From a virus: 64,000 nt of DNA. A model generated the notes under the pieces. It made no database searches. It saw only the letters and a program-made list of their open reading frames with translations, and was not told the DNA's origin. Below, in pieces: positions 6,151-45,763 of the stretch. Within the stretch, counting starts at the first letter, position 1. Every line of letters starts with the position of its first letter. Location: the IMG/VR virus record IMGVR_UViG_3300037512_001384, positions 6,442 to 70,441 of that record. One strand, 5' to 3'. The position numbers were made by a program, and so were the translations under genes.

Positions 6151-6688
6151 TCAAGACATACTTTATAGGCATATTATATTTCTTAGAGCCATGCATTATG
6201 GTATCCTTGCGACCGTCATAACCGGTTGCTATCTCCTGTATGGCTTCATGGTCAAAGAAATACTTCTCCTGTTTTGACATCAGGAATATATATTCATGTG
6301 CCTTCGTACAGCGGTCTTTGATGCTTTCGGGCTGCGGATTCAGCTTATGCCAGATGATGTCATTTCTCAGACGGAATCCGATACGGTCTCTTAGTGCGAA
6401 AGCCGCCATCCAGGGAATACCGATAAGACTTTTTGCATTGTCATAGCTATCTCCGAGGTTCAGCCAGAGCGTTCCTTCCGGTTTAAGAACGCGAAACACT
6501 TCCGTGAATACTTCGGTGAGTCTGTCGATATACTCTTCTGGTGACTTCTCCAGACCTATCTGACCGTCAATACCGTAGTCTCGCAGATTGAAATATGGCG
6601 GTGAGGTGACACAGCAATCAACGCAGTTGTCAGGAAGGCTTTTCATTCCGGTGAGGCAGTCTTCATTGAAAACTTTGTTGATTTCCAT
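6041..6688 (-). CDS. N-terminal half of a beta-class N4/N6 DNA methyltransferase (SPPY motif IV), separated from its 3' half by inversion
   Basis: MEINKVFNEDCL..DCCVTSPPYFNLRDY..LWLNLGDSY..NDIIWHK..HEYIFLMSK. Methyltransferase similarity stops at the repeat (6163-6175). The rest of the ORF is read-through antisense to the primase-helicase gene. Confidence 0.75.
   Translation of the reverse strand: MEINKVFNEDCLTGMKSLPDNCVDCCVTSPPYFNLRDYGIDGQIGLEKSPEEYIDRLTEVFTEVFRVLKPEGTLWLNLGDSYDNAKSLIGIPWMAAFALRDRIGFRLRNDIIWHKLNPQPESIKDRCTKAHEYIFLMSKQEKYFFDHEAIQEIATGYDGRKDTIMHGSKKYNMPIKYVLIRTGYLRLSAHQRVFHYVVFPAAPLQNPIPADSAAS
6163..6175. repeat. left inverted repeat of invertible segment 1 (TTATAGGCATATT)
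   Basis: Perfect reverse complement of 6692-6704. An imperfect extension brings it to about 20 bp. Confidence 0.9.
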
Positions 6689-6691
6689 TAC

Positions 6692-6704
6692 AATATGCCT
6701 ATAA
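6692..6704. repeat. right inverted repeat of invertible segment 1 (AATATGCCTATAA)
   Basis: Reverse complement of 6163-6175. Contains the ATG (6695) of the downstream ORF, in the same codon phase as the N-half. Confidence 0.9.
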
Positions 6705-7108
6705 TGCCTTCGGGTAACAGGCAGACGATGGCTACGCACGGGCATCAGCGATGGAGGTTCAAGAACCTTCAGGATGATGGACAGCAACCCAATTCGATGC
6801 ATATCAGACGTGCTGCCGGATTGCCGGACCAGCAATATCCGGTCAGAAACAAAAGGGATGTATGGAGTGTAGCCACCAAACCTGAGAAGGCGGCTCATTT
6901 CGCTGTCTATCCCGAAGAGCTCATCAGACCTTGCATCCTTGCCGGATGTCCGAAAGGTGGCCTGGTGCTTGACCCGTTTATGGGAAGTGGCACGACAGCC
7001 AGGGTCGCCCGTAAGTACAATCGCAACTTCATAGGGTATGAACTGAACCCTGAATATATCAAGATTATCAATCAGAAGACGGTGGTGACACCGGACTTGT
7101 TCTCATAG
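6695..7108 (+). CDS. C-terminal half of the same beta-class DNA methyltransferase (AdoMet-binding motif I)
   Basis: RNKRDVWSVATKP..AHFAVYPEELIRPCI..VLDPFMGSGTTARVA..GYELNPEY. No motif IV on this strand. Confidence 0.75.
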   Translation: MPIMPSGNRQTMATHGHQRWRFKNLQDDGQQPNSMHIRRAAGLPDQQYPVRNKRDVWSVATKPEKAAHFAVYPEELIRPCILAGCPKGGLVLDPFMGSGTTARVARKYNRNFIGYELNPEYIKIINQKTVVTPDLFS

Positions 7109-16063: not shown

Positions 16064-16392
16064 ATATTATTTGTATGACAGAGGAGTTCTGGGCGAACTC
16101 ACAATTCAGCGTAGCAAGATATTATGGACGTATAGGAATTGACGGGCATGATTTCTTGATTGTAAACAAGGAAGGTAAGGATGTGTTCCAGTGTTCCGCC
16201 GAAGCAGAAAAGGATGGTCGTGAACATGCCATTGAGCCGGGTGAACCTGCAGACCTTTGCCGTTCTGATTTCGTCAAGTATTACAAGGAACTCAAACGTG
16301 ACAGATTCCTTGAAGTGTTGCGCGAGAATCCCAATGCCAGCGATAAGGAGCTATTAGAAATATTCAAACAACTGACAGCAAAGAAGAAATGA
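16060..16392 (+). CDS. hypothetical protein
   Basis: ATGA overlap with the methyltransferase stop. Confidence 0.5.
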   Translation: MNIICMTEEFWANSQFSVARYYGRIGIDGHDFLIVNKEGKDVFQCSAEAEKDGREHAIEPGEPADLCRSDFVKYYKELKRDRFLEVLRENPNASDKELLEIFKQLTAKKK

Positions 16393-16526
16393 AGTGCTAT
16401 TTCAACAACCGGACAGTGAATGATAGTGTTTGTTCTTCCTGTACGCTAAAGAATGAATGTGTTGCTTATAACACACGGCAGACAGAGCATGTCAGTTCCG
16501 GAACCCCAGTAAACGTTTATATATGA
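16389..16526 (+). CDS. small Cys-rich protein (45 aa, not in ORF track)
   Basis: MKCYFNNRTVNDSVCSSCTLKNECVAYN..; ATGA overlaps at both ends. Confidence 0.35.
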   Translation: MKCYFNNRTVNDSVCSSCTLKNECVAYNTRQTEHVSSGTPVNVYI

Positions 16527-17125
16527 AACTTGCATCACATAATACCTTCAGCTATCTGCCGGTACGCAAATGGTGGATGAAGCCTTTCGCATGGATGGCA
16601 CGCTGCCAGAGAATAACCACATATCAGCAGTTTAGATGTGGCGCTCGCTTCTTTGACTTAAGGGTCAGATTTGACAAGAAGAGAGAGCGAATAATATGTC
16701 ATGGGCTTATTGAGTATATGGACAATGAAGATACTTTGTCCGTTGCTCTTTCGATTCTTGATCATAAGGGTAGCTGCGGGATGAGGGTGGTCCTCGAAAC
16801 GAACAAGAGTGATGAGTTTCAGGAAGGTTGTTTCCGCCAATACTGCAGACACCTTCAAAATGAGTTTCCTAACATCATCTTCTGTGGCGGTAACAATCGC
16901 ACTGATTGGGGTTGCAAGCATCCCATATACGATTTCGGCAATCCACTTCCGGATATTGAGCATAAGTATTCAAGTACAACGAGCCTCTTTCCGAACGGTC
17001 CCAAGTGGCTGAGGCGTATCGATGACCTCTGTCCTTGGTATTATGCCAAACATCACAACAAGGAGAATCTTGAGAAGGGGACGAGCCATGAGTTTCTGAT
17101 GATTGACTTTGTTGATATACAGTGA
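16523..17125 (+). CDS. hypothetical protein (possible PLC-like phosphodiesterase fold)
   Basis: SHNTFSY..GARFFDLRV resembles the PI-PLC X-domain start. Weak. Confidence 0.35.
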   Translation: MKLASHNTFSYLPVRKWWMKPFAWMARCQRITTYQQFRCGARFFDLRVRFDKKRERIICHGLIEYMDNEDTLSVALSILDHKGSCGMRVVLETNKSDEFQEGCFRQYCRHLQNEFPNIIFCGGNNRTDWGCKHPIYDFGNPLPDIEHKYSSTTSLFPNGPKWLRRIDDLCPWYYAKHHNKENLEKGTSHEFLMIDFVDIQ

Positions 17126-17439
17126 TGAAGAAATTAGACGAGTTATGTATTGCCAACGCTGTGGTCGCTCATGGTACTATGGCGGGTCTTCCTGTATATG
17201 AGCCTCCATATTATTGGTGGATAACCGATATAGAAAGGCGCATGTGGGTGCGAGAAGAAATGCGCAGGTATGGCAATAAATTACTGCATTTGCAACTCAG
17301 TAAGTACAATAAGCGTTACACAAAAATAGCTAATGAGTTGTTTGTACACAGCAATATGGGTTTTGCCGATATTGGTAGAACCCTTGGCTATCAGGGTTCA
17401 CTCTGGATGGCAAACGAATTTAACAAACACACAATATGA
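17122..17439 (+). CDS. hypothetical protein
   Basis: Overlapping start and stop. Confidence 0.5.
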   Translation: MMKKLDELCIANAVVAHGTMAGLPVYEPPYYWWITDIERRMWVREEMRRYGNKLLHLQLSKYNKRYTKIANELFVHSNMGFADIGRTLGYQGSLWMANEFNKHTI

Positions 17440-17675
17440 AACCAGTAGAGTTTGAGGGCGTAAATACGACATACGCAAAGAATCAACCAGAGTATCTTCC
17501 ATTACCGGCACAGAGGATTAACGACAATACAATCATCACATGCTGGGAGTTGACCGATGAAGAAATCAAAGTGCTTAAAAAGACCAAGAAGCTGTGGCTT
17601 GGTGTGATGACATTCAACAAACCCTTGCAGCCGCTTCTTCCATCAGTATCAAAACAAGACATTTTAGAAGCATGA
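17436..17675 (+). CDS. hypothetical protein
   Basis: Overlapping start and stop. Confidence 0.5.
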   Translation: MKPVEFEGVNTTYAKNQPEYLPLPAQRINDNTIITCWELTDEEIKVLKKTKKLWLGVMTFNKPLQPLLPSVSKQDILEA

Positions 17676-18304
17676 ATAAGTTACAAAAATTCTTCAACTT
17701 TTTCAACCAGAAGGTACTTATATGTGACCTTGACGGCACACTGATAGAAACAAAGAGCGGTAAGACTTTTCCTGAGAATGAGGACGATTGGAAATTCAAG
17801 AAGAACATCAGGGAGGCCATCCAAGAGTATAATCCCAAGTACGTTTTCATCGTAACCAATCAAGGTGGTATCGAAAAGGGTTTCGTCGATGAAGGTAAAT
17901 TCGCAACTAAACTGAGGGTTATTAAGGATGAAATCCGGTCGTGGGGTGATTATATTGTCTATGCCACTTACTGCACCTCCAACGATAAGAACTGTAAGTA
18001 TCGCAAGCCCAACACCGGAATGATAGATTGGTTGCGTCACGATTATGTTGGCGGCAATGACTTCAACCCTCGTAATGCGCTCATGATCGGCGATGCAAGC
18101 GGTCTTATAGGTCAGTTCTCAGATACAGACTTACAGTGTGCTCGTAATGCCGGTATCAAATACATTGATGTTGCAGATTTCATTAGGGCTATGGTGCCTT
18201 GCAGCATGTGCGATTCATGCAGTCTGGGTAGGGACATACCCGTATCGCGTCCATGTGACTTTAGTAAGAGATTCAGGCTGAAGGCTAACCTTTTAAACAA
18301 GTGA
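17672..18304 (+). CDS. HAD-superfamily phosphatase (polynucleotide 3'-phosphatase / heptose-bisphosphate phosphatase-like)
   Basis: DLDGTLI, TNQGG, RKPNTGM and GDA motifs. ORF trimmed to MNKLQKF at an ATGA overlap. Confidence 0.65.
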   Translation: MNKLQKFFNFFNQKVLICDLDGTLIETKSGKTFPENEDDWKFKKNIREAIQEYNPKYVFIVTNQGGIEKGFVDEGKFATKLRVIKDEIRSWGDYIVYATYCTSNDKNCKYRKPNTGMIDWLRHDYVGGNDFNPRNALMIGDASGLIGQFSDTDLQCARNAGIKYIDVADFIRAMVPCSMCDSCSLGRDIPVSRPCDFSKRFRLKANLLNK

Positions 18305-18308
18305 AATA

Positions 18309-18620
18309 ATGAAAGCAAGAAACACTGTTACAGGCGAAGTATTTAGGGATTTTGGAATCTCTAAGGAATTTGGGACAGCATCAGGAATTGATGAGAATAA
18401 CAAATTGAGATTCTTTACGCCTGCAGATGGCGCTTTTGAGATAATTGATGAACCAGAGGGGAAAGATTGGGATGAGTTCAGATGTGATGCTGCGAGTCGA
18501 TTTATGGCGGCTGCTTATGGTAAATACGGAACGCTCTTGGAACCGCGTATAACTGCCAAACAAAGCATTCATTACGCCGACATTCTTATTGAAGAACTTA
18601 AAAAACAAAGTGATATATGA
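18309..18620 (+). CDS. hypothetical protein
   Basis: ORF-track ORF. Confidence 0.5.
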   Translation: MKARNTVTGEVFRDFGISKEFGTASGIDENNKLRFFTPADGAFEIIDEPEGKDWDEFRCDAASRFMAAAYGKYGTLLEPRITAKQSIHYADILIEELKKQSDI

Positions 18621-18799
18621 GAGACAACAACAAAAGTAGAGGCTTGGGTCTTTGCGGAGTGCTGACGGTAGTATTCGTCGTTCTTAAACTGACCCATAAC
18701 ATTGATTGGTCATGGTGGTGGGTGCTTGCTCCATTATGGGGTGGCATAGCTCTTATCATTGCCTTGTTACTAATCTTGTTAATCATTAAACTGTTATGA
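18617..18799 (+). CDS. small membrane protein
   Basis: Two hydrophobic helices, W-rich loop. Confidence 0.5.
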   Translation: MRDNNKSRGLGLCGVLTVVFVVLKLTHNIDWSWWWVLAPLWGGIALIIALLLILLIIKLL

Positions 18800-18996
18800 C
18801 TGTAAATTTCACAAACGAAAAGGAAGAGCATATTAAGAGCTGGCCCAATTGGACCGGAGTCGTTCCTCAAATCGGAGATACTGTAATCCTCAACTTTGGC
18901 GATTACAATGAAATCCCGGAGAAGCATACGGTTACAGGTCGAGTCATCGATGGAAAGAAGCCGGACAAGGTTACTCTTGTCATAAATTGGGATTGA
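18796..18996 (+). CDS. hypothetical protein
   Basis: Overlapping start and stop. Confidence 0.45.
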   Translation: MTVNFTNEKEEHIKSWPNWTGVVPQIGDTVILNFGDYNEIPEKHTVTGRVIDGKKPDKVTLVINWD

Positions 18997-18997
18997 T

Positions 18998-19465
18998 ATG
19001 GATGCGGGTATTCATTTGGGTATGGATAAAGCCCATAAGGAGTTGGAGGATGAAGCCAAGCGCATGATAGCAAGTTCGATTCTTGACGATTCACCTAAAC
19101 CGGTCTTTGTCGCTGCAGACTTTGGACAAGGAAAAGATTTGAGTTCGCTCATGCTTATAGATAAAGGCACCGGTAAAGTTGTCAGTTATGACAAAACAGC
19201 TGTCATTTCCATAAATGAGAACATGAAGATGGAAGTGCGCAAGAACGATTTTTCATATACGCCTCCTTCCGCAGAATGGAATGCCAAACTCAATTTCACC
19301 CATAAGCAGGCACGCCAGTTCCGAAAACTCAGAAGGGAAGTTGGTTTACACAAGTCACGTATTCCACGCAAAAGAAAGAAGAAGTTTAAGGCTTTTATGC
19401 GTATGACGATGCTATGCTGGCCAGATAGCGTATTCAGCCAAGTTTGCGATTATTCTAATTATTAA
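18998..19465 (+). CDS. hypothetical protein
   Basis: ORF-track ORF, followed by a terminator. Confidence 0.5.
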   Translation: MDAGIHLGMDKAHKELEDEAKRMIASSILDDSPKPVFVAADFGQGKDLSSLMLIDKGTGKVVSYDKTAVISINENMKMEVRKNDFSYTPPSAEWNAKLNFTHKQARQFRKLRREVGLHKSRIPRKRKKKFKAFMRMTMLCWPDSVFSQVCDYSNY

Positions 19466-19470
19466 CCGAC

Positions 19471-19497
19471 AGGCATTCCGACAAGGATGCCTTTTTT
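19471..19497 (+). terminator. rho-independent terminator
   Basis: AGGCAT..ATGCCT stem followed by TTTTT. Confidence 0.75.
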
Positions 19498-19509
19498 ATT
19501 TCCATAACA

Positions 19510-19806
19510 ATGAAGACTATTTTCGTTTCAATCCCCTGCACCGATCACATGGCAGAGCTGCCAGCAAGGTGCAAAGCCGCGCATGAGAAGTATGATGCGC
19601 CCGGTGTTAAGGTATTCACGCCTAAAGATGTGGTTCCGGATTCAAGCACACCCTATGCCACATGTCTGGGTAAGACCATTGAGAAGGTTCTGGAAGTTGA
19701 TGAAGTTGTCTTCGCCAACGGCTGGGCTGATTCCAAAGGTTGTACTATGGAAATGCACGCCGCACAGACCTATAACAAGAAATGGATTGTAGATGTCAAG
19801 ATTTGA
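19510..19806 (+). CDS. DUF4406 / nucleoside 2-deoxyribosyltransferase-like protein
   Basis: DEVVFANGWADSKGCTMEMHAAQ resembles the DUF4406 C-terminal block. Confidence 0.45.
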   Translation: MKTIFVSIPCTDHMAELPARCKAAHEKYDAPGVKVFTPKDVVPDSSTPYATCLGKTIEKVLEVDEVVFANGWADSKGCTMEMHAAQTYNKKWIVDVKI

Positions 19807-19827
19807 TAACGATTAAAACCAGGAGAT

Positions 19828-20028
19828 ATGACTGACGCATTATGCTTTATTGCGCTCGTGATAGCCGCTTTCGCTGTCATAATTGCTGGCGCTGTATTCA
19901 TCGCAGTAAGATGCCTCGCCGATGATATTAGGGAGCAGATTGAAGGTTTTGAAAAGCGTCTGGACAACTTCGCTGAGGCTCGGATGTTTGAAAGGAAAGA
20001 ACAACGATATCACCATGACGAAAAGTGA
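19828..20028 (+). CDS. small membrane protein
   Basis: N-terminal hydrophobic helix. Confidence 0.4.
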   Translation: MTDALCFIALVIAAFAVIIAGAVFIAVRCLADDIREQIEGFEKRLDNFAEARMFERKEQRYHHDEK

Positions 20029-20191
20029 ATTTCTCTCAGAGTACACAGCCTTACTGACAAGGTATTGTGTGAACAACAAGGATTATGAGAACATTCAGCA
20101 TAGGGATATTCTCAAAACAGACATTCCCATAAAAGCAAGGAGCAGCGTAAGAGTGCAGCTGTCCACTTACCTGACAGCAACAGATGAATAG
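20015..20191 (+). CDS. hypothetical protein
   Basis: ORF 19922-20191 trimmed to MTKSEFL. Confidence 0.35.
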   Translation: MTKSEFLSEYTALLTRYCVNNKDYENIQHRDILKTDIPIKARSSVRVQLSTYLTATDE

Positions 20192-20211
20192 ATAACCTAA
20201 AAGAAATACTT

Positions 20212-20736
20212 ATGAAACGTGATGTGTGGAAAGACGTAAAAGGCTATAAGGGTCTTTATAAGATAAACCGTGAAGGTGTTGTCATCAACAAACGAGGCAA
20301 GGTGGTAGGGACAGAGTTGTCGCAACGAGGTTACGTGCGCGTCAGACTGTATAAGAACAACGTCAAGAAGAATCATAAGGTTCACCGCTTGGTAGCCCAG
20401 GCTTTCATCCCCAACCCCAGACGTCTGTCACAGATAGACCATATCAATGGTGATAAGACGGACAACAGAGTCCAGAACCTTCGATGGATGGACAACAGAG
20501 AGAACAACAACGCATTCAAGAGTGAACATCTGAACAAGCAGCCGGTGGTAATCATCGGCTGTTTTGGTGAAATACTGAGATACTTCTCTTCATTACGCGA
20601 AGCAGCATCTGCCATAGGTGTCAGCAGGCATGGTATTTCAGCCGCCTGCCGTGGATTACAGAAGACATCAGGCGGTTATTCATGGCGTTTCGTGACTGAA
20701 GCTGAATTTGCTTTGTTCAACAGGAAGGCTGTATGA
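20212..20736 (+). CDS. HNH homing endonuclease (NUMOD4 + HNH)
   Basis: WKDVKGYKGLYKINREG, then HRLVAQAF..IDHINGDKTDNRVQNLRW..NN. Confidence 0.85.
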   Translation: MKRDVWKDVKGYKGLYKINREGVVINKRGKVVGTELSQRGYVRVRLYKNNVKKNHKVHRLVAQAFIPNPRRLSQIDHINGDKTDNRVQNLRWMDNRENNNAFKSEHLNKQPVVIIGCFGEILRYFSSLREAASAIGVSRHGISAACRGLQKTSGGYSWRFVTEAEFALFNRKAV

Positions 20737-20770
20737 CATATACGGCCCGGAGAAAAACAATATCATTCTA

Positions 20771-21745
20771 ATGTATCGAAAAAAGAAACCGGCAGGTTTT
20801 GATGAACGTCTTCAGTGGTCTATCAATTTGTTGAAGAAAGCAGAAAAACTCGCTTTGCAATATGATCCTGATGACGGATTCTATTTAGCCTTCTCAGCAG
20901 GCAAGGATTCCCAAGCATTATATCACATCGCCAAACTTGCAGGTGTCAAGTTTCAGGCTCACATGAACTTTACGAGTATTGACCCTCCAGAGGTTATTCG
21001 CTTCTGTCGCGAACATTATCCTGATGTCATAACTCATGCACCCGAGGACAGCATCTACAATATTGCCGTAAACGGGAAATATCTGCTGCCTTCACGTATC
21101 ATTAGATGGTGCTGTGCCATTCTTAAAGAGACTGGAGGTGCCGGTACGGTCTGTCTTACAGGTGTACGCAGACAGGAAAGCATCAGACGCTCCAAACGTA
21201 ACAGCGTTGAAGTTAGCAACAGCTCCTTCTCCGGGGACCTCGATGCCTTCGAGACGTGGAGAAAAGAGAAGATTGCCAAGAAGATTCAGCATCTCAACCA
21301 GGACCAATTCAGTGAACAAGACGAGGAACAAATCAGATGTATCGGCGGCAAGGATAAAATCATTGTCAATCCGATAATAGACTGGTCTGAGTCTGATGTC
21401 TGGTATTTTCTCAACGAAGTTGTGAAAGTGCCTCACTGCTCGCTATATGACAGAGGATATAAACGTATCGGATGTATCTGCTGTCCTATGGCAAATTATA
21501 AGCAGAAACTCATCGAATTGGCGGATTACCCCCATGTCAAGCGCAACTGGATAAATGCCATCAAGCGGATACGCGAGCAGGGTATCGCAAAGAATATCCT
21601 GACAGAGAACTATTTCGGCAATGGTACGGAAGACGAGATATGTGAGAACATCTTCCAATGGTGGATCAGCGGGAAATCCTATGACGAATGGTATGCTGAG
21701 ACATTCCTTCAGCAAAGGATTGATTTTGGAGAGGAACAACAATAG
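20771..21745 (+). CDS. PAPS-reductase-family (PP-loop ATPase) protein
   Basis: PP-loop FSAGKDS, C-terminal IGCICCP cysteine cluster. ORF trimmed to MYRKKKP. Confidence 0.8.
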   Translation: MYRKKKPAGFDERLQWSINLLKKAEKLALQYDPDDGFYLAFSAGKDSQALYHIAKLAGVKFQAHMNFTSIDPPEVIRFCREHYPDVITHAPEDSIYNIAVNGKYLLPSRIIRWCCAILKETGGAGTVCLTGVRRQESIRRSKRNSVEVSNSSFSGDLDAFETWRKEKIAKKIQHLNQDQFSEQDEEQIRCIGGKDKIIVNPIIDWSESDVWYFLNEVVKVPHCSLYDRGYKRIGCICCPMANYKQKLIELADYPHVKRNWINAIKRIREQGIAKNILTENYFGNGTEDEICENIFQWWISGKSYDEWYAETFLQQRIDFGEEQQ

Positions 21746-21772
21746 AATGATATTGTAACCGGCAGTAGCAAA

Positions 21773-21789
21773 CAATATGTGGGTATTGT
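21773..21789. repeat. left inverted repeat of invertible segment 2 (CAATATGTGGGTATTGT)
   Basis: 16 of 17 bp reverse-complementary to 22468-22484. The 13-bp perfect core is ATGTGGGTATTGT. Confidence 0.85.
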
Positions 21790-21798
21790 ATTTCCATT

Positions 21799-22455
21799 TC
21801 AGAATAATTCGAGTTGTGTGATTGTGGTGCCGTCTTGCAATTTGGTCTCTCCGAGGCATTCCTCCCTGAACCGCTCTTCCTGGAGGTCATAGTATTCTTT
21901 GCTTATCTCACAAGCGTAGAAGTCAAACCCCATCTTATAGGCAGCGATGCGGCTTGAACCACTTCCAAGATGGCTGTCGAATATCTTGTCACCCGGCTTT
22001 GCGAAGGTCTTTAGCAGATAGGCGTATAGTTCTATTGGTTTACAGGTGGGATGCCATACAACCTTGTCGATGTGACCGCCTCGGTTGGATATTGTGATCA
22101 GTTTGGCTGGTTTATCAAATGACGTCCAGGCAAACTCACATTGACTGAAGTTCTCCCATACCTGCTGCTTATCCCAGATGACAAAGCAACGGCAAGGAGG
22201 TAAGGGAAAGTAGTTACCTCCCCAGATAATCTGGTTCTTGCTGACGCGGAATAACTCCTTCCAATATTCTGTGGGGGGTGCAACATCCCAACTCATATCA
22301 TGGCGGTTGAGGGTGCGATTCTTAAGTTTCCCGCTCCCTTGAACAGAGGATTTCTTGAGCTGATACGGCGGGTCCACTATCGCAAGGTCAAAGAATGCGT
22401 CTGGAAGCGTCTTCATATAGGCTAAGCAGTCTGTATTGAACACTTCGCTAACCAT
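21799..22455 (-). CDS. N6-adenine-type DNA methyltransferase (DPPY), complete gene in leftward orientation
   Basis: DLAIVDPPYQL, WGGNYF, FDSHLGSGSSRIAA. It is the only complete leftward gene in the first 26.6 kb. Confidence 0.85.
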   Translation of the reverse strand: MVSEVFNTDCLAYMKTLPDAFFDLAIVDPPYQLKKSSVQGSGKLKNRTLNRHDMSWDVAPPTEYWKELFRVSKNQIIWGGNYFPLPPCRCFVIWDKQQVWENFSQCEFAWTSFDKPAKLITISNRGGHIDKVVWHPTCKPIELYAYLLKTFAKPGDKIFDSHLGSGSSRIAAYKMGFDFYACEISKEYYDLQEERFREECLGETKLQDGTTITQLELF

Positions 22456-22467
22456 TGTCTTTGGGTA

Positions 22468-22484
22468 ACAATACCCACATAATG
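22468..22484. repeat. right inverted repeat of invertible segment 2 (ACAATACCCACATAATG)
   Basis: Pairs with 21773-21789. Ends 2 nt before the ATG of the next methyltransferase gene. Confidence 0.85.
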
Positions 22485-22486
22485 TA

Positions 22487-23245
22487 ATGCTTCATGGGGA
22501 TTGCCTTGAACTTATGCGGGATATTCCGGATAAGAGTATCGACATGATTCTGAGTGATCCGCCTTATGGAACGCTAAACAAGAGCAACCCGGATGCGCAA
22601 TGGGATAAGGAAGTTGACCTTAAGGCATTATGGAGGCAATACAAGCGCATCATCAAGCCCAACGGTGTCATTCTTCTGTTCGGTCAAGGTGTCTTTGGAG
22701 CCAAGCTGATTATGAGTAACCCGAAATGGTTCAGATATGACTTCGTTTGGGATAAGGTCAGGAAATCCAATTTCCTTAACTGTAAGAAGATGCCGATGCG
22801 TCAGCATGAGCAGATATTCGTGTTCTACGGCAAGCCGCCTCTGTATAACCCTCAGATGGTCCGGTGCAAGGAGTCTCAGAAGAACCACAGCAGAGGCACG
22901 ACAGGACGAGAGCAGAAGACCTCCTGTTACGGCAAATACAACGTGACGGAAACCATAGATACCGATTACAAGTATCCCGGAACTATCGTTCGGTTTCCCA
23001 AAGGGCACAGTAAGGAAGACTGGAAGCACGGGACAACCAAACCGGTCAATCTCTTGCGTTATCTCATCAGGACATATTCCAAAGAGGGTGATGTCATCCT
23101 TGACAATTTTGCAGGATCCGGCAATACACTGATTGCCGCCATCAAAGAGAAGAGAGACTGGATAGGTATGGAGATATCGGATAAGTTCTATGCTTTGGCT
23201 CAGCAACGTATAAATGACGAACTAAGAGAACCAACTTTATTCTGA
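22487..23245 (+). CDS. N6-adenine-type DNA methyltransferase (DPPY)
   Basis: DMILSDPPYGT, YDFVWDK, LDNFAGSGNTLIAA. Confidence 0.85.
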   Translation: MLHGDCLELMRDIPDKSIDMILSDPPYGTLNKSNPDAQWDKEVDLKALWRQYKRIIKPNGVILLFGQGVFGAKLIMSNPKWFRYDFVWDKVRKSNFLNCKKMPMRQHEQIFVFYGKPPLYNPQMVRCKESQKNHSRGTTGREQKTSCYGKYNVTETIDTDYKYPGTIVRFPKGHSKEDWKHGTTKPVNLLRYLIRTYSKEGDVILDNFAGSGNTLIAAIKEKRDWIGMEISDKFYALAQQRINDELREPTLF

Positions 23246-23246
23246 A

Positions 23247-23459
23247 ATGAGCAAACAACAACGAGGTGGCGTAATCCATTTTCGCGACCGTGACAGGGAT
23301 GCATGGCCGCAATCTGATTTCAGGGATGTATATGTCAAGCCTAATATCAAGCTGCCTGAAGCACCCAAGAATCACATGATTTTAACTTGTAACCCTTCCG
23401 GGCTAAATATTTTCCATAAGAATTTCATCAACGACAACAATGAAAGAGATTCCCGATGA
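23247..23459 (+). CDS. hypothetical protein
   Basis: ORF-track ORF. Confidence 0.4.
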   Translation: MSKQQRGGVIHFRDRDRDAWPQSDFRDVYVKPNIKLPEAPKNHMILTCNPSGLNIFHKNFINDNNERDSR

Positions 23460-23715
23460 GCTGTACAACCAATTAGACTACTTGGGGTTGATTCCCAACG
23501 AAGTCCGTTCAACCAATGTAGGCAAGAGTGATTACTCCAAGCATTTCATCCAGCCCTGGACAATATGGTTGGATGCCAATCTCAACCCGTGGGATGCGGA
23601 TATAGTCAAGCGCATATTGAGGACAAAAGAAGGTGATTCCCGTATGATGGACTATGAGAAAATCATCCATATATGCGAGGAGCGTATCAGACAGCTTAAG
23701 TTCACTGCGAAATGA
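23440..23715 (+). CDS. DUF3310-like protein
   Basis: GKSDYSKHFIQPW..LNPWDADIVKRILR pattern. Confidence 0.55.
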   Translation: MKEIPDELYNQLDYLGLIPNEVRSTNVGKSDYSKHFIQPWTIWLDANLNPWDADIVKRILRTKEGDSRMMDYEKIIHICEERIRQLKFTAK

Positions 23716-24377
23716 AAAAGGTTGTAATCAAAACCGTGATGGAATATGAAGGTATGGAGTGGACATCACGGGTTGTGGACTTTGGTATTAGCCTTATGGT
23801 GGCGGCGGCTATCAACGAAGTGATTTGCGCCTTTATCATGGTGAAGGAATCCGACCTGTTCCGTCGTTCCGTCAAGCATAATGCGACAAGGGCTGTCAAG
23901 GAGGCTGAAGCCAAGCAACGTGAGTTGAAGGAATCGGCCGGGGATGGAGAGCTGTTCGCGTCTTACTCCGATGCAGTCATAGACAAGGCGCGTAACGACA
24001 TAACATTGCTGCAGCTTGCCATCAAGCAGGCGCTTGACACGCATAAAGTCAAACATTCAGATATCCTTGCTCGCGCTGAATGTGCGAGGGTATTATTGGA
24101 TATGTCAGCGAAGCAGTTCGCCAATACCATCAGGACTGCCGAATGCAGGTATCTGAAAAACTTCTATGAGCACTTCAAGGAGTTTGACATGAAGCATCTG
24201 CATGATGCATGGAAGATGGTTTGTACGGAACTGTTCGTGGGTTATAACGTTGACCTCAACACACCGACGGTGAAGGGGCTGTTCGAGTCTATGCTTAACA
24301 AGTTCTCCAACGGAGAGTACATATATGGTTGTCTGGACCAGGCGTATGAGGAATATCCCGAGAAACGACCTAATTAA
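23712..24377 (+). CDS. hypothetical protein
   Basis: Overlapping start and stop. Confidence 0.5.
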   Translation: MKKVVIKTVMEYEGMEWTSRVVDFGISLMVAAAINEVICAFIMVKESDLFRRSVKHNATRAVKEAEAKQRELKESAGDGELFASYSDAVIDKARNDITLLQLAIKQALDTHKVKHSDILARAECARVLLDMSAKQFANTIRTAECRYLKNFYEHFKEFDMKHLHDAWKMVCTELFVGYNVDLNTPTVKGLFESMLNKFSNGEYIYGCLDQAYEEYPEKRPN

Positions 24378-24391
24378 ACATCAAAATAACT

Positions 24392-25162
24392 ATGGGAAAA
24401 TTTATCATTTATTTCAAGGAGAACAGAAACGGGCATTGCGCTTATCGTTTCGTCAAGAGTTATCGTAAGGGTGGTTTCTTAAGGAAAGAGCGTATTGAAT
24501 ATACGCTGGACTTGGTTCAGGCTATGGACTTTCCGGATATGGAAGTCGTAGTCAAAGCCCACAAGCGTTTGTCTGCAGATTATCCCGATGCGGCTGTGAA
24601 CTATATGGATGTCGAGGAGTTCAGGGACAGATTCGCACTGCATCGGTTCTGGCTGATATGCAGGCATGACAATAACGGTCAACCAATCGAGTATTACAGC
24701 GGCACCGGTAAGGGACATTTCTCCTGGACGAACGACATCACTAATGCCCTGTTGGGTCTGGATGCGAAGACGCAGGAAGAAACTTTCAGGCGTATCCGTC
24801 TGACCGGTGACAGGATTACCCTCATCCCTGTCTATCTCGACCTGATCAACGACCTTCTGAACCCCAACTTCATCATCACCTGTACCAGCAAGACCGGTGA
24901 ACAGAAGACCAAGTTCTTCGCCCGCAGGGAGGGTAACAGACTGAGGTTGGTTGAGACATCCGATGCCGCCAAGAAATTCAACTACCGCGAAGGACTGGAG
25001 GCGTTCGAGACTCTGAAGATAAACAACAAGAACTTCTTATATGCCATGCTTCCTGCATTCAAGGAGAATGTGTCATATAAGAATCTGGAAGCCTATTGCA
25101 AGGCAAACAACCCGTCTCGCGCCCTGCAGATGGAGATTAAGCTGGACGCTCTGAATAAATGA
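24392..25162 (+). CDS. hypothetical protein
   Basis: ORF-track ORF. Confidence 0.5.
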   Translation: MGKFIIYFKENRNGHCAYRFVKSYRKGGFLRKERIEYTLDLVQAMDFPDMEVVVKAHKRLSADYPDAAVNYMDVEEFRDRFALHRFWLICRHDNNGQPIEYYSGTGKGHFSWTNDITNALLGLDAKTQEETFRRIRLTGDRITLIPVYLDLINDLLNPNFIITCTSKTGEQKTKFFARREGNRLRLVETSDAAKKFNYREGLEAFETLKINNKNFLYAMLPAFKENVSYKNLEAYCKANNPSRALQMEIKLDALNK

Positions 25163-25165
25163 CGT

Positions 25166-25426
25166 ATGGACCAGACAAAAGCGCAGAAACTCGTTGATGA
25201 CCTTATGGAACTCATCAACAAGGAGAAGCTGGAAGGTTCTGAACGTCTCGCGGTCGTTTCGATGTTCTTCTCCACGGAGATAGCATGTGCGTTCTTGTCC
25301 GGCGTGATAGATGACACGCTGCCTACAGACCAGGTTCTGGACGGTGCGTTTGAAATCATACGTAAGGAGGTGAAGGATGCCATCTCACATGGCGGAGTGG
25401 CAGTGGATATTAAGGGAGATTGTTGA
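25166..25426 (+). CDS. hypothetical protein
   Basis: ORF-track ORF. Confidence 0.45.
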   Translation: MDQTKAQKLVDDLMELINKEKLEGSERLAVVSMFFSTEIACAFLSGVIDDTLPTDQVLDGAFEIIRKEVKDAISHGGVAVDIKGDC

Positions 25427-25442
25427 CGTGAAACATAAGACT

Positions 25443-25667
25443 ATGACTGAGCAGGAGGGACAGGAGATCCTGGACCGTATATCCGAGTTGTTCAACGAAC
25501 ATGAACTCACACTCGGTGACGCCTTTCGGGTACTGTCCTCCATGTTCATCAGTCTCACGAATGACGTTCAGAAGAGATATCCGAAAGAGAATGTCATTGG
25601 CGAAGCGGTCAAGTATCTGAATATCATCCGATATAACGTACTACCTCCTAAAGACAGACCGAACTGA
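25443..25667 (+). CDS. hypothetical protein (start uncertain)
   Basis: ORF 25377-25667 trimmed to the first ATG after the upstream stop. Confidence 0.4.
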   Translation: MTEQEGQEILDRISELFNEHELTLGDAFRVLSSMFISLTNDVQKRYPKENVIGEAVKYLNIIRYNVLPPKDRPN

Positions 25668-25668
25668 T

Positions 25669-26619
25669 ATGGCACGATTGAAGAAAGCAGAGAGGGAACG
25701 TAGGGAGAAAGAGAGGATACACCGCGAGACTGACTGTATCAGACGTAAGGTCGTGGGTGATTTCTTTATCAGCTTCTCACGTCATATACGTCCTTGGCTC
25801 CTTGGTATGGCGGAACGGTATATCGAGAGAGGTATATACCCGATGCTGGCGCAGTCTATCCTGCCTTCCTATTACGAGGACAAGAATGACAAGGAGATAG
25901 CTGCTTTCGCGTCCCTGTTGCTGGACCCCGAATCAGAGTTTGACAGGATCCAGGCGTTCCGCGAGATGATGGGGGAGCATCCGTTTCTTTGGTTTGGTAA
26001 AAGGGATTATGTCATACTCTCTACCGGTGCCAATCAGAACAAACTGATAGGCGGCGTCCCGGGATGGAAGATAGCCAGGCTGATGGAGAAGCTATGGCAG
26101 CGAGGACGTATGGACGCTCAGGAAGGTGACGGTACATACTATGTCCTTACACCTATCATGGTGACACTGAATGTGAAGTACCTCAACTGGCTTCCGGAGG
26201 ATGCCGTACTTGATATGATAGGTGACTGCATTCCCAAGAAAGAGAGTCTTTATCGAATAAGGCTCGCATTGCTCGTTCTTTTGACGCCTGACGGCATCGG
26301 TCAGGATGTGTGGTCAGTTGAACCGGAACGTCTGAGATGTCCACTCTCAACCAAAATAACACCGTTCCTTGAAACGTGGTTTCCCGACTATACGAGATAC
26401 GGTACAAGGGAAGAGGCTATTGAGCTGTTCGACATGCCTCATCATTATGATTTCTTCTATGCTTATCTGGCTTACATGGAGATAGGCAAAAGAAAACCCC
26501 GCGAGTGCAGCAGGCTCGCCACTACATACCGACGATGGTATGACCGTGGCGATGATAAATACAGACCTGCTGTCTGGCGGGAAATAATGGACAGGGTGGA
26601 ACAACAAGACCTTGCTTAG
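25669..26619 (+). CDS. hypothetical protein
   Basis: 316-aa ORF, last gene of the rightward block. Confidence 0.5.
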   Translation: MARLKKAERERREKERIHRETDCIRRKVVGDFFISFSRHIRPWLLGMAERYIERGIYPMLAQSILPSYYEDKNDKEIAAFASLLLDPESEFDRIQAFREMMGEHPFLWFGKRDYVILSTGANQNKLIGGVPGWKIARLMEKLWQRGRMDAQEGDGTYYVLTPIMVTLNVKYLNWLPEDAVLDMIGDCIPKKESLYRIRLALLVLLTPDGIGQDVWSVEPERLRCPLSTKITPFLETWFPDYTRYGTREEAIELFDMPHHYDFFYAYLAYMEIGKRKPRECSRLATTYRRWYDRGDDKYRPAVWREIMDRVEQQDLA

Positions 26620-26627
26620 TCTTATCG

Positions 26628-26666
26628 TGTGGGGAGTAGCTGTCATGCTGCTCCCCACTTTTTTTT
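26628..26666 (+). terminator. rho-independent terminator between convergent blocks
   Basis: GTGGGGAG..CTCCCCAC stem followed by eight T. Confidence 0.8.
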
Positions 26667-26667
26667 G

Positions 26668-27510
26668 TTATGTGCCGGTGAAGAACCCCATACCGCTCAA
26701 GTCGAGATTATCGGCATCCACGCAGATGTAACGTGATGTCATGTTCTCGTTCTTGTTGTGGTTCATCAGGGCGCAGATGACGGCACGCGGCACACCGCGC
26801 AGAGTCAGGTTGGTGGCGAAGGATCTCCGGGCCGTATGACTCCCGACATACTCGTACTTGGGTCGCGTCTGCGTCTTACCGTGATAGAATATCTTGGTTT
26901 CCTGACTGATACCGCATCGGCGACAGATACGTTTGATGACATCGTTATAAACGGCTCTGTTATGTTCGCCGGTGGGCTTGTACTGCAGGTAACGCATGAG
27001 GTTGCGATGTATCGGTATGGAGCTCTCCACCTTCGTCTTCTGACTCACATAACACAGTCTGCCGTCAATGATGTTATGCTCGGTGAATGACTTGACATCG
27101 GACGTCCTGGCACCGCAGTAGCACTCGATGAGGAAAGCCGCCTTGATGTCCCGTTCCGTGTCATTATGGGGAACATATCGTTCGATACGCTCTATCTCCT
27201 CTTCCGTGAGATAGACGTTCTGTGACGGCACTCTCTTAGCCTTCAATTCCTTCCCGGGATTCTTACAGGGGAATAAATTCTCATCCAGATAAGCGGAAAG
27301 GAAAGCCTTCAATACGGCGAGATAGGTACATGCCGTATTACCGGCTACGTTGTCACAGATATTATCCCTCATCTCGGACAGGTTAAGCGTCGTGAGGTCG
27401 CTCCACTGCACCTCCTGAACGCCTATCGCATCACGCATATACCGAAGGATATGCGCATAGCTGGGTTGTCTTCTGACAAACTCCTGCTCAAAACTTAAAA
27501 TTCCGTTCAT
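26668..27510 (-). CDS. tyrosine recombinase (phage integrase family)
   Basis: CGARTSDV (Arg I), HTARRSFATNL (HxxR), MNHN.. and the terminal ..MTSRYICVD (catalytic Tyr). Confidence 0.85.
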   Translation of the reverse strand: MNGILSFEQEFVRRQPSYAHILRYMRDAIGVQEVQWSDLTTLNLSEMRDNICDNVAGNTACTYLAVLKAFLSAYLDENLFPCKNPGKELKAKRVPSQNVYLTEEEIERIERYVPHNDTERDIKAAFLIECYCGARTSDVKSFTEHNIIDGRLCYVSQKTKVESSIPIHRNLMRYLQYKPTGEHNRAVYNDVIKRICRRCGISQETKIFYHGKTQTRPKYEYVGSHTARRSFATNLTLRGVPRAVICALMNHNKNENMTSRYICVDADNLDLSGMGFFTGT

Positions 27511-27696
27511 ATCATTTGGTTTTTATTGATTACGACGAGTGAAGCCGGACAATATCCCATCGTCCGGCTCCTGATTAACCTAAATACTTATGTGGTAAAA
27601 ACGTACACACGAAAGTATGTGTAAACATGTTGACCACACTGCTACGACTATGGTAATCTTGCTGCCGGAGGACGTTTTACCGTCATCCGGCATTGT

Positions 27697-29073
27697 TTAC
27701 AGGCGCAGTGTACCCGCTCTTGCCGCCTCACAGCGTCTCAGCACCTCCTTACGGTCACGTATGAGTATCCTGGCTCTCATATCCATACCTTCGCCCGTGG
27801 GCTTATCCAGGACACCTATCGCAACCATCGTGAGGAAGTCCTCGATTGCCATACGGCGTGTAAGAAGGAAGGGGAACATACCGAAGTTACGTGGCGTCAA
27901 CTCTGTCCTGCCTTGTGACTCCTGCAGGAAGAGGCATTCGGGTTGTCCCTTGATAGTAACGGTGACACATGGCGCATCCTCCTGTCCCGGGATGTCAAGC
28001 ACGGAACCGGTAAATGTACCTCTGCAGACAAGGTTGAGCAGTATAGCATCCTCGATGTACTCCGTATCTGCATATCCGCATTGTACGCGCACGTCATCAA
28101 TGCCGTCTGAGTAGAGCATATCACCCTTACCCATCAGGTCCTCGGCACCGGTATGGTCGAGGATGACACGCGAATCAATACCCGATGCGACGCGGAACGC
28201 GATACGTACCGGGAAGTTCGCCTTGATGTTTCCTGTCACGATGGTCGCCGACGGACGTTGCGTGGCTATGATCATGTGGATACCGACGGCACGGGCTTTC
28301 TGTGCGATACGGCATATCATACGCTCCATATCCTTCCCGGCTGTCATAATAAGGTCGGCATACTCGTCTATGACCACGATGCAGTAACGCATGTAGTCTT
28401 CACCGTTGAGCTTGTCATTATACTCTTTGATGTTACGTACTCCTTTCTGCGAGAGAAGGGTGTAACGGTACTCCATGAGGTTAATGACACGCTGCAGGAT
28501 AGCGACAGCATCCTCTGTGGTCGTGGCTATGTCATCGGCGAGATACTTGTGCCAGAGAGGAGCGTAGATGTTGAGCTCAACCTGTTTGGGGTCGATGAGC
28601 ACCAACTGCATCTCTTCCGGTGTGCGCTTGCTCATCAGTGAGAGCAGCAGCATGTTCAGGCATACCGACTTACCTTGACCGGTCGCACCGGCAATAAGCA
28701 GGTGCGGCATCTGTGTGAGGTCACGGATGAAGAGTTCTCCCTGTACCGTCTTGCCTATGGCGCATGGAAGTGCCATCCTGCAGGACTCGTAATCGACATG
28801 ATGCAGAACGCTGTCCATGTGTACTATCTGACGTTGGAAGTTGGGAACCTCAATGCCAATCGTACCGCCTGCGAGCGGTCCCATGATGCGTACCGACTCC
28901 GTACCGACCGCCAAGGCAAACTCATCAGCGAGTCTGCGTACACGTGTCATATTCACACCCATATCCGGTCTGAACTCATACAGGGTGACGCTGGGTCCTT
29001 TCGTGACTCTCCAGCTCAGCGGTTCAATCTTATGAACCCTGAGCACCTGTTCTAACTTGTAAGTGTAATCCAT
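27697..29073 (-). CDS. FtsK/SpoIIIE-family DNA translocase-like ATPase
   Basis: Walker A AGATGQGKS, Walker B VVIDEYADL, ATQRPSATIVTGNIKANFP..GAEDLMGKGDML. Start set at MDYTYK by the cassette. Confidence 0.85.
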   Translation of the reverse strand: MDYTYKLEQVLRVHKIEPLSWRVTKGPSVTLYEFRPDMGVNMTRVRRLADEFALAVGTESVRIMGPLAGGTIGIEVPNFQRQIVHMDSVLHHVDYESCRMALPCAIGKTVQGELFIRDLTQMPHLLIAGATGQGKSVCLNMLLLSLMSKRTPEEMQLVLIDPKQVELNIYAPLWHKYLADDIATTTEDAVAILQRVINLMEYRYTLLSQKGVRNIKEYNDKLNGEDYMRYCIVVIDEYADLIMTAGKDMERMICRIAQKARAVGIHMIIATQRPSATIVTGNIKANFPVRIAFRVASGIDSRVILDHTGAEDLMGKGDMLYSDGIDDVRVQCGYADTEYIEDAILLNLVCRGTFTGSVLDIPGQEDAPCVTVTIKGQPECLFLQESQGRTELTPRNFGMFPFLLTRRMAIEDFLTMVAIGVLDKPTGEGMDMRARILIRDRKEVLRRCEAARAGTLRL

Positions 29074-29245: not shown

Positions 29246-29320
29246 CACAAAGATAAGGATTCGCCCTTATCCTTGTATGGCGATGTTAATCCTTAACATA
29301 GTTAATGTACGGATTTAACA

Positions 29321-45100: not shown

Positions 45101-45763
45101 AGTTGTAATATTTAAGAGTTAATAAAATAGTGTCAAAGTGCGCATATCGGAAACACCTTTCCGACACTATAAAATTACAAAAATAATCCGATATAATGCC
45201 AATATTTGTATATTTAACTTATGTTTAATTGATTGATATATAGTAAGTTATAAAGAAAGATTATACAATATTGTAGTATATATACAGGTTATTATTGTAT
45301 ATATACATAGATAGTTAATTATATAATAACTTAAATATATAGATATTTAACGGAAAAATACTTACAAATTGATCCCAGAGTTTCGGCAATAGGTGCAAAC
45401 CGATGAACACACAACCAACACGGCAATAAAGCGGAAAAGTTGCAAGGAGCGACAAACCCCACAACGGACCGACAACGCGACCGCGAGCGGATACAATACA
45501 ATTATAATGTATTTGTTTTGCAGGAAAAACCGCGCGAATACCCCACCCAGAGAAGGCTACCCCCGACCCCCTAAATACGTTTGTATTGCGTGGGGGTCAG
45601 CCCCCGCCGAGATTTTCAATTTTTCATTTTTCGTTTTTACTTTTCGTATGCGGAACATGTTTCTGTGTATCTCAATCGGTGTTTCTGGTCTATATATATC
45701 AGTCCTGATGCCGTGTATCCTTGTCTGCGCGTTGATTATGGTCTGATACATGGGTATCTATGG

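Follow-up and report, generated by a model that had tools for sequence, protein, structure and literature searches.

We report that a DNA-methyltransferase gene of a virus, here called MT1, lies on a segment of DNA that inverts. The gene was found in a stretch of 64,000 nucleotides (nt) of the IMG/VR virus record IMGVR_UViG_3300037512_001384 (positions 6,442 to 70,441), the whole of which is referred to below as the window. In the window MT1 runs antisense to the rightward train of genes around it and sits between two short inverted repeats, and a sequence-only reading of this DNA had proposed that the repeat-bounded segment is invertible. Inversion of the segment is confirmed: contigs at least 97% identical to the window carry it in both orientations, with the breakpoints inside the 18-nt repeat arms. 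Two other segments of the same phage, one carrying a PAPS-reductase-family gene and the other the 5′ half of a further methyltransferase gene (MT0, at locus 1), also invert, and the three switches are independent of one another.

The MT1 segment and its inversion

MT1 scores 53.3 bits against the Pfam model N6_N4_Mtase (PF01555; cutoff 26.7 bits), and its match to PHROG 67 ('DNA methyltransferase') spans residues 4–205. Its translation shows IVDPPY and DSHLGSGSS, a catalytic DPPY and an FxGxG-type S-adenosylmethionine (SAM)-binding motif by which, together with the score, it is assigned to PF01555. The open reading frame (ORF) and the Pfam and PHROG matches bear out the sequence-only reading, which had described a full-length minus-strand DPPY methyltransferase at 21799–22455, with 12 nt between its ATG and the right repeat (exactly so, at 22456–22467) and the next methyltransferase gene, MT2, directly beyond that repeat (it starts at 22487). 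The repeats themselves had been given as 17 base pairs (bp) long, with 16 of 17 positions matching and a 13-bp core; they are real, but the arms (21772–21789 and 22468–22485) are in fact 18 nt long, complementary at 17 of 18 positions, with a perfect core of 14 nt. They bound an invertible segment of 714 bp (21772–22485), in which 9 nt separate the MT1 stop codon from the left arm (21790–21798). MT2 was inverted in none of the contigs seen.

Contigs nearly identical to the window (at least 97.4% identical) were gathered by an exact look-up of the MT1 protein, then by look-ups of the recombinase described below and of MT2, and come from about ten samples beyond that of L081, the contig with which the comparison is clearest. 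L081 (ENA assembly ERZ27257203, reached by the exact-protein look-up of MT1) is 99.97% identical to window positions 15802–28458. In it, without any change in gene order, both 21772–22485 and 20757–21756 are turned round in place; the alignment blocks overlap exactly at the 18-nt arms, and the identical MT1 protein is encoded on the opposite strand relative to the flanks. MT1 is co-directional with the gene train in L081/L185/L192, L195, L186/L194, L197 and L198, and antisense in the window (to which L182 is 100% identical), L082 and L193, while L081, L193 and L198 carry the PAPS cassette inverted. Written as PAPS/MT1, the states +/−, −/+ and −/− thus all occur among near-identical contigs, and the +/+ state occurs in the more distant relatives L101, L093 and L036.

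A check for one orientation only across related genomes found both, even within the single assembly ERZ27257204, which at contig level holds MT1 antisense in L082 and sense in L195. Six contigs end exactly at the MT1 arms (L183, L187 and L188(/L196) at 22468; L082, L186 and L197 at 21772–21776), which is the expected behaviour of an assembler at a real polymorphic junction. By inference, repeat-induced misassembly cannot explain both orientations, because the 18-nt arms are shorter than the assembly k-mers (k141 in the contig names). Logan assemblies use a smaller k than k141. Polymorphisms in the arms confine the crossover to 6163–6175, 20757–20770 and 21776–21789 at the three switches, and the overlap of all three intervals corresponds to site positions 5–14, that is, the centre of the site plus 2 nt on either side.

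Throughout some 12 near-identical contigs the content and order of cassettes are constant and orientation alone varies. Neither inversion nor deletion between different site pairs was seen in them, PAPS being followed by MT1 in all, and no circular or empty-site forms were seen among the contigs. The MT1 segment has four of the features by which an inverton is recognised: bounding inverted repeats, both orientations with breakpoints in the repeats, coexistence of the two in one sample, and the core-site architecture set out in the next section.

Two further switches and a shared site family

The PAPS-reductase-family gene, which lies just upstream of the MT1 segment, scores 68.5 bits against Pfam PAPS_reduct and matches PHROG 424. 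It had been supposed that flipping the MT1 segment would make MT1 co-directional with this upstream gene. Co-directional MT1 was indeed found, but the PAPS gene itself flips and is no fixed reference.

At locus 1 the inversion acts within a coding sequence. Flipping the segment in silico restores an in-frame methyltransferase of 309 aa, and a database search returned P0001, which is the flipped MT0 product exactly (100% over 309 aa), and P0002, a 99% variant. The contigs that encode these two proteins are the same phage with 6163–6704 reversed (L103 and L102, respectively): L103 matches the window at 100% over the inverted segment and the flank to its left and at 99.99% over the flank to its right, and L102 is about 96% identical. 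L099, with a protein 69–81% identical, is in the same split state as MT0 in the window and has a different centre, CAGGAA. Judged by the reading frame, the predicted functional state at locus 1 is unambiguously the one that is co-directional with the gene train.

The sites of the window share the general form ACAWTA-N6-TAWTGT, each arm being a small palindrome. Their centres are reverse-complementary within a pair (TCATTC/GAATGA, TGTGGG/CCCACA and TAGGCA/TGCCTA) and different between pairs. A short asymmetric crossover region with binding arms in inverted orientation on its two sides is the core-site layout of tyrosine recombinases (loxP, FRT, dif), and these enzymes require the same crossover sequence in both partner sites.

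A search for inverted repeats (16 nt or longer, no more than 1 mismatch, 100–3000 nt apart) gives 4 in the window, against 0.87 in random sequences generated from it by a first-order Markov chain. The motif ACAATA-N6-TATTGT, with at most 2 mismatches, matches 6 times against 2.65 expected, and 6 matches were reached in 7 of 100 shuffles. Taken from the window alone, the argument that the MT1 repeat exceeds chance is moderate, and chance is not excluded there. We nevertheless take the repeats to be beyond chance because three of the four share one architecture, each of these exactly brackets a DNA-modification gene or a part of one, and the segments are seen to invert when contigs are compared. 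The fourth repeat (29191–29206/31151–31166; 16 nt, 15 of 16 matching) differs in architecture, is colinear in all relatives and is probably a chance match.

One more site lies alone in a non-coding region (Table 1), and a scan of the window with the site motif found no partner for it. It may serve the same recombinase as a site of resolution or attachment.

Table 1. Sites, genes and segments of the three switches in the window, with the candidate recombinase. Half-sites and centres are separated by hyphens.
Feature	Coordinates	Strand	Sequence or content	Description
MT1	21799..22455	−	218 aa	Complete beta-class N6/N4 DNA methyltransferase with DPPY motif; antisense to the gene train in the window
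MT1 cassette left site	21772..21789		ACAATATGTGGGTATTGT	ACAATA-TGTGGG-TATTGT; 6-nt half-sites flanking a 6-nt centre; inversion breakpoint in L081, L186, L195, L197, L198
MT1 cassette right site	22468..22485		ACAATACCCACATAATGT	ACAATA-CCCACA-TAATGT; centre reverse-complementary to that of the left site
MT1 cassette interior	21790..22467		ORF alone plus 9-nt and 12-nt margins	Reversed in relatives 98.7–99.9% identical over the segment
MT2	22487..23245	+	252 aa	N6/N4 methyltransferase; starts one base past the MT1 right arm; fixed
PAPS cassette left site	20757..20774		ACAATATCATTCTAATGT	ACAATA-TCATTC-TAATGT; includes the gene's ATG (20771); breakpoint in L081, L193, L198
PAPS-reductase-family gene	20771..21745	+	324 aa	Cargo of the second, independently invertible cassette
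PAPS cassette right site	21739..21756		ACAATAGAATGATATTGT	ACAATA-GAATGA-TATTGT; overlaps the stop codon; 15 nt from the MT1 left site
Locus 1 left site	6160..6177		ACTTTATAGGCATATTAT	ACTTTA-TAGGCA-TATTAT; breakpoint in L103, L102
Locus 1 right site	6690..6707		ACAATATGCCTATAATGC	ACAATA-TGCCTA-TAATGC
MT0 5′ half	6178..6688	−	Start codon to mid-gene	Inverted relative to the 3′ half; split OFF state
MT0 3′ half	6707..7108	+	DPFMGSGTT and other motifs	Fixed; when OFF, lacks its own start codon
Lone site	45493..45510		ACAATA-CAATTA-TAATGT	In a 0.9-kb non-coding region between divergent gene blocks
REC	26668..27510	−	280 aa	Xer-like tyrosine recombinase; candidate invertase; adjoins an FtsK-like gene (27697–29115)

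Sites and cassettes in relatives

Searches of GenBank phages with positions 20700–23300 (megablast and blastn) returned no relative except one weak match of 194 nt, and because GenBank thus held no useful phage relative, metagenome collections were used for comparison. Among IMG/VR loci with MT1 homologues (46–72% identical), the flanking inverted repeat and the site motif were absent in 79 of 80; judged from these loci, the methyltransferase family as such is not associated with inversion. The exception, L036, holds four consecutive single-gene cassettes (radical-SAM-like, PAPS reductase, N6/N4 methyltransferase and Dam-like) at 3989–7836, bracketed by ACATTA-N6-TAATGT sites with pair-specific centres, 8 sites being present against 0.89 expected.

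Further arrays were obtained from a motif-only scan of IMG/VR, a scan with a recombinase profile and a scan of GTDB genomes. Of 18 loci from the IMG/VR scan for two adjacent sites, 11 were left out as unrelated because none of their centres paired as reverse complements; they comprise AT-rich, iteron-like arrays of 22 bp in L084, L086 and L088–L090, together with L085, L087, L091, L092, L095 and L098.

In 14 non-redundant contigs, an exactly reverse-complementary centre partner exists for 73 of 84 sites, and the 37 site pairs have 22 different centres, none of them palindromic. A logo of the 37 pairs shows that the arms extend to about 9 nt, through a conserved G at −2 and C at +21. The polarity of the centre relative to the cassette is fixed: its first position, on the outer side, is T in 71 of the 73 sites, and its last position is never T. 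Homologous cassettes have centres that differ from phage to phage yet are always complementary within the pair, the PAPS slot alone showing TTTTTC, TTATTC, TCTTTC, TTTCCC, TTTTCC, TCTTCC and TCATTC.

The relatives carry from none to four cassettes, whose orientations vary freely among them. Additional cassette types, found in L036, L105, L108, L110, L111, L200 and L201, encode a protein of 310–333 aa with a CxxxCxxC radical-SAM motif and a Dam-like protein of 197 aa. The same PAPS slot holds two PAPS-reductase families that are only about 25% identical, and the site family persists in phages whose cassette proteins are 25–80% identical. Some of the close relatives that bear cassettes were found in the GTDB scan, binned with Bacteroidales genomes.

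Two unusual site arrangements were also observed. Methyltransferase cassettes in L094/L106 (10973–11738), L100 (6913–7680) and L101 (1411–2178) are bracketed by two concentric site pairs, the outer with centre TGAAGG and the inner with TTYGTG, 11–16 nt apart; such pairs might be left over from the replacement of a cassette, or might form a double switch. L201 has the left site of its methyltransferase cassette three times in tandem (16038–16109), at a spacing of 27 nt; the three copies share the centre TCAGTG and face one right site, at 16782.

A candidate recombinase

Pfam scans of about 45 ORFs of the window, together with precomputed Pfam annotations, gave a single recombinase match, REC, which scores 47.6 bits against Phage_integrase (PF00589); there was no Pfam match to a resolvase or serine recombinase among the same ORFs and annotations. 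REC resembles the XerA, XerD and XerC models weakly, far below their cutoffs, and its nearest solved structure is that of XerA (4a8e). The catalytic residues R135, K158, H225, R228, H251 and Y261 are invariant across 28 homologues.

REC is syntenic in the relatives that bear cassettes, 4–6 kilobases (kb) from the cassettes (4.2 kb downstream in the window), and is present in all five of the motif-found cassette contigs that are long enough to reach its expected position. An initial search of IMG/VR with REC led only to L083, a locus without sites; a profile search gave a wider set, in which site pairs occur at 8 of 15 loci with a REC at least 47% identical and at 0 of 65 with a more distant REC. 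A generic inverted-repeat search for an alternative site family in the motif-less REC loci returned background-level repeats only. From its sequence and these associations, REC is the probable invertase of the cassettes.

REC and the neighbouring FtsK/SpoIIIE-like gene (26668–29115) are kept as a pair in L083, L094, L097 and L100, reminiscent of the partnership of Xer with FtsK. At 571–2658 the window encodes another protein with an FtsK domain, fused in this case to a PD-(D/E)XK nuclease.

Promoters and expression

No Bacteroidetes −7 box (TAnnTTTG) is present on the minus strand of 21201–29247, hence none upstream of MT1 as it is now oriented. A sigma-70-like match upstream of MT1 on that strand (22656–22627) agrees at 9 of 12 positions, which is no more than chance. 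More generally, the region 19400–23800 contains 7 promoter-like matches against 8.6 expected from shuffles and 2 terminator-like matches against 3.8. The sequence-only reading had held that there is no room for a promoter inside the MT1 segment, and this stands: a single ORF fills the segment, and no Bacteroidetes −7 box lies in it. It had also named a promoter driving MT1 in its present orientation as a finding that would count against a switch; the scans just given found no such promoter.

Because the margins between MT1 and its arms are of only 12 and 9 nt and the rightward gene train is tightly packed, MT1 is most likely made only when it is co-directional with the train. By analogy with locus 1, MT1 is probably ON in the co-directional contigs (L081 and others) and OFF when antisense, as in the window.

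Proposed mechanism and alternatives

We consider it likely, on the evidence as a whole, that MT1 is the cargo of a promoterless, single-gene, invertible cassette that is turned over by a tyrosine recombinase and controlled by its orientation. Each end of such a cassette would consist of two inverted recombinase-binding arms of 6–9 nt (G..ACAWTA/TAWTGT..C) around an asymmetric 6-nt centre. With partner sites inverted and of the same centre, the recombinase, most likely the phage's own 280-aa REC, would act by strand exchange in the centre, so that the segment can be flipped back and forth. The PAPS cassette and the MT0 switch, having the same arms and different centres, flip independently, and would not recombine with the MT1 sites or with each other. 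When co-directional, MT1 would be read through from an outside promoter, and when antisense it would be silent. The outcome would be a phage population that is mixed in the DNA modifications it applies. We hypothesize that the purpose is bet-hedging, the mixture serving both against hosts whose restriction is blocked by modification and against hosts with systems that attack modified DNA. The most economical reading of the three switches would be combinatorial phase variation of phage DNA modifications.

Several points weigh against this account. Heterogeneity within a sample was judged at the level of assembled contigs and not of read counts. No promoter was located for the gene train, there being no Bacteroidetes −7 box on the plus strand in 1–26.9 kb, and that MT1 is transcribed only when co-directional is a prediction from sequence. 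Seven loci with a REC 47–64% identical (L083, L104, L107, L112–L114 and L175) have no sites within 10 kb of it, and the association of REC with the sites is confounded by phylogeny. The primary job of REC may therefore lie elsewhere, or a host invertase may be acting.

This last possibility, that the recombination sites are real and the enzyme is a host (Bacteroidales) invertase or an unrecognised phage protein instead of REC, we regard as unlikely. The close REC relatives without sites nearby (L083, L104 and others) fit it, as does the position of REC beside an FtsK-like gene, which suits a Xer-type role in resolution, and a large number of tyrosine invertases is known from Bacteroidales genomes (Jiang et al. 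2019, as cited in PMC10333322). REC is, however, the sole recombinase found in the 64 kb and accompanies every cassette array where the contig reaches far enough, and the site motif was found neither near distant REC relatives (0 of 65 loci) nor in the 79 other loci with MT1 homologues.

It is quite unlikely, in our judgment, that the sites serve mainly for the capture or exchange of cassettes between co-infecting phages, by recombinase-mediated cassette exchange on an integron-like platform, with flipping as a tolerated side effect. In favour of such a role, cassette content varies between relatives, from none to four, while slots and centres persist; the two PAPS families of about 25% identity occupy one slot, their centres being related (TCATTC for L200 as for the window, and elsewhere TYTTYC); two methyltransferase types occur within TGAAGG sites; and the nested site pairs of L094/L106, L100 and L101 and the triplicated left site of L201 would be at home in it. 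Yet content and order are constant in the 12 or so near-identical contigs, in which circular or empty-site forms were not seen, and locus 1 cannot be a capture device, as it reversibly breaks and restores one gene. The capture and switch readings are compatible, not mutually exclusive, and we would add, speculatively, that the sites of the switches may also mediate cassette replacement.

A third alternative accepts the inversion and gives it a target other than turning MT1 ON and OFF: the antisense segment could damp or terminate read-through into MT2 and the genes downstream, or MT1 could be expressed in its antisense orientation from a leftward promoter inside MT2. The weak sigma-70-like match at 22656–22627 on the minus strand and a weak terminator-like hairpin inside antisense MT1 (plus strand, 22222–22234) are what such roles would use. 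Against them, promoter-like and terminator-like matches are at or below the level of shuffles, the Bacteroidetes −7 box is absent from the minus strand over 21201–29247, and locus 1 is predicted to be functional when co-directional, a logic that may be extended to MT1; we think this alternative improbable.

An explanation by a chance repeat, with the differences in orientation as artefacts of assembly, is effectively refuted by the inversions in L081, in L103 and in the census of near-identical contigs: although about 0.9 inverted repeats of such quality are expected per window by chance, three pairs of one architecture each exactly bracket a gene or gene part, the same inversions recur in independent assemblies from different assemblers and more than ten samples with breakpoints at arms shorter than the assembly k-mers, and the site family is conserved, with covarying centres, where cassette proteins are only 25–80% identical.

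Returning to orientation control of promoterless cassettes, a broader version of it can be put forward as possible but doubtful: a lineage of large phages, likely of Bacteroidales, would carry an array of up to four or more such cassettes (for methyltransferases, PAPS reductases and a radical-SAM enzyme), flipping independently by virtue of heterospecific centres and yielding 2^n modification states among progeny, and would in addition swap cassettes between co-infecting phages in an integron-like manner of capture.

Comparison with known inversion systems

Site-specific inversion by a tyrosine recombinase is well known; what is unusual here is the combination of a flipping promoterless gene, switches insulated by their centres, DNA-modification cargo and a phage as carrier. 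Jiang et al. 2019 (as cited in PMC10333322) surveyed the fimS-type promoter invertons of enterobacteria and gut Bacteroidales, in which there is likewise a short segment bounded by inverted repeats and flipped by a tyrosine recombinase (here a candidate), with mixed populations and ON/OFF phase variation (here predicted). There, however, the promoter flips and the genes are fixed on a bacterial chromosome, whereas here a promoterless whole gene flips against a fixed direction of transcription in a phage, and several switches with common arms are insulated by different centres. An invertible promoter as such was rejected for the MT1 segment, which is filled by one complete ORF, has no Bacteroidetes −7 box and shows no sigma-70-like matches above chance.

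Inversion at methylation genes is also familiar from the hsdS loci of Type I restriction-modification systems, in which, as passages of PMC7672463, PMC4948785 and PMC7641763 describe, it changes methylation and so creates clonal epigenetic heterogeneity, often by tyrosine recombinases. In those systems target-recognition domains are swapped and specificity changes; here stand-alone, Type II-like methyltransferase genes are switched whole or, at locus 1, split. The cargo here also includes PAPS reductase and, in relatives, radical-SAM-like genes, and the carrier is a phage, with a presumed role in counter-defence rather than in defence or host gene regulation. A Type I hsdS inverton was ruled out for the window, since MT1, MT2 and MT0 are stand-alone PF01555 enzymes and no hsdS, M or R gene was found in the neighbourhood.

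Programmed inversions that alter genes or act within them have been described in bacterial genomes, mostly as exchanges of alternative C-terminal segments, and methyltransferase genes are among the enriched targets in PMC9881135 (see also bioRxiv 10.1101/2023.03.11.532203). The inversion at locus 1 (6160–6707) resembles them in altering a product from within its coding sequence, but here no alternative segment is supplied: the gene is either intact or split, or, in the cassettes, sense or antisense. A search of the text of these two sources for phage and methyltransferase terms met with no phage-borne array of whole-gene cassettes in the passages so reached.

Phages offer their own precedents in the invertible segments of Mu (G/Gin) and P1 (C/Cin), in which a phage-encoded recombinase (here a candidate) flips a phage segment to give mixed progeny with different infection capabilities. 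Those enzymes, Gin and Cin, belong to the serine recombinases; they use a 2-bp crossover and an enhancer, and what they flip are alternative tail-fibre genes. The system of the window differs from them in its candidate tyrosine recombinase, 6-nt centre and DNA-modification cargo. A serine-invertase system of the Gin/Cin/Hin kind was rejected on the lack of a serine-recombinase Pfam match among the ORFs scanned and on the cargo of methyltransferase and PAPS-reductase genes. The Mu segment is cited in PMC12823448.

The R64 shufflon (Rci) shares with the present system many short sites, one tyrosine recombinase (again a candidate here) and modules the size of genes. Its sites cross-react and its segments shuffle, whereas here the centres are pair-specific and order is constant; a shufflon was set aside on these grounds, the centres TCATTC, TGTGGG and TAGGCA being different and no rearrangement between pairs being present in the contigs seen. 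Integrons (IntI/attC) also hold promoterless, tightly packed modules, but their attC sites are long, folded and in direct orientation and serve excision and insertion, in contrast to the inverted sites of 18–24 bp here, at which only inversion was observed. An integron was likewise discarded, REC reaching 37.9 bits where the XerA/integron-integrase model has its cutoff at 220, and the near-identical contigs showing inversion only.

Engineered heterospecific lox and FRT designs (FLEx/DIO, Brainbow) flip whole ORFs against a fixed promoter, keep switches independent by means of different spacers and reach combinatorial states. They are synthetic and usually irreversible; the switches described here are natural, apparently reversible and in a phage. 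Full-text literature searches, and term searches within the portions of papers that these retrieved, gave no published description of phage-borne invertible cassettes of DNA-modification genes.

The phage around the switches

The gene train in which the cassettes lie is tightly packed, running from an HNH endonuclease gene (20212–20736) through the PAPS-reductase-family gene (20771–21745) and MT2 (22487–23245) onward to 26619. The 3′ ends of MT1 and MT2 are alike in the same sense (21786–21807 and 23237–23258; TTATTCTGAAATG..., 18 of 22 positions), and both genes close with L-F-stop followed by AATG.

The window is wholly phage, with a portal protein, an intein-containing terminase, a capsid protein, a D5-type primase and RecT/RusA. 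Its genes for the evasion of restriction include ArdA, a C5 methyltransferase, DUF5131 and at least three N6/N4 methyltransferases, which shows that the phage invests strongly in restriction evasion. The ArdA-like anti-restriction protein, the DUF5131 protein and the C5 cytosine methyltransferase, of 578 aa, are encoded within 39005–39997 and 13555–16063.

Elsewhere in the window, the large terminase gene (55360–58152; 930 aa) includes a homing-endonuclease (Hom_end) domain, which suggests the intein. The minus strand at about 31000–37000 forms a hypervariable block, in which L183 and L184 differ by insertions, deletions and replacements of small genes and the alignment breaks at about 31006. 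The G+C fraction rises from about 0.45 to about 0.53 over 46000–64000, from the start of the primase and structural module, past an AT-rich non-coding stretch at 45100–46014.

Significance

Phase variation by DNA inversion is a classic strategy of bacteria and in phages is known for tail fibres (Mu, P1). The phage described here appears to apply it to its own DNA-modification genes, with three switches (four in a relative) that share one family of recombinase sites and owe their independence to different crossover centres. The sites themselves amount to a natural heterospecific set, with at least 22 centres, for a small recombinase. The annotation of phage genomes is affected as well: where a metagenomic assembly shows a modification gene split or antisense, the gene may be a switch in its OFF state and not a pseudogene or misassembly. 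A single long read shows both how a cassette is oriented and how that molecule is methylated, which makes the idea directly testable. Should expression depend on orientation, several states of methylation or modification would be present in each phage population, and this, if true, would give such phages a direct mechanism of hedging between restriction that modification blocks and restriction that attacks modified DNA, including in hosts that phase-vary the specificity of their own restriction.

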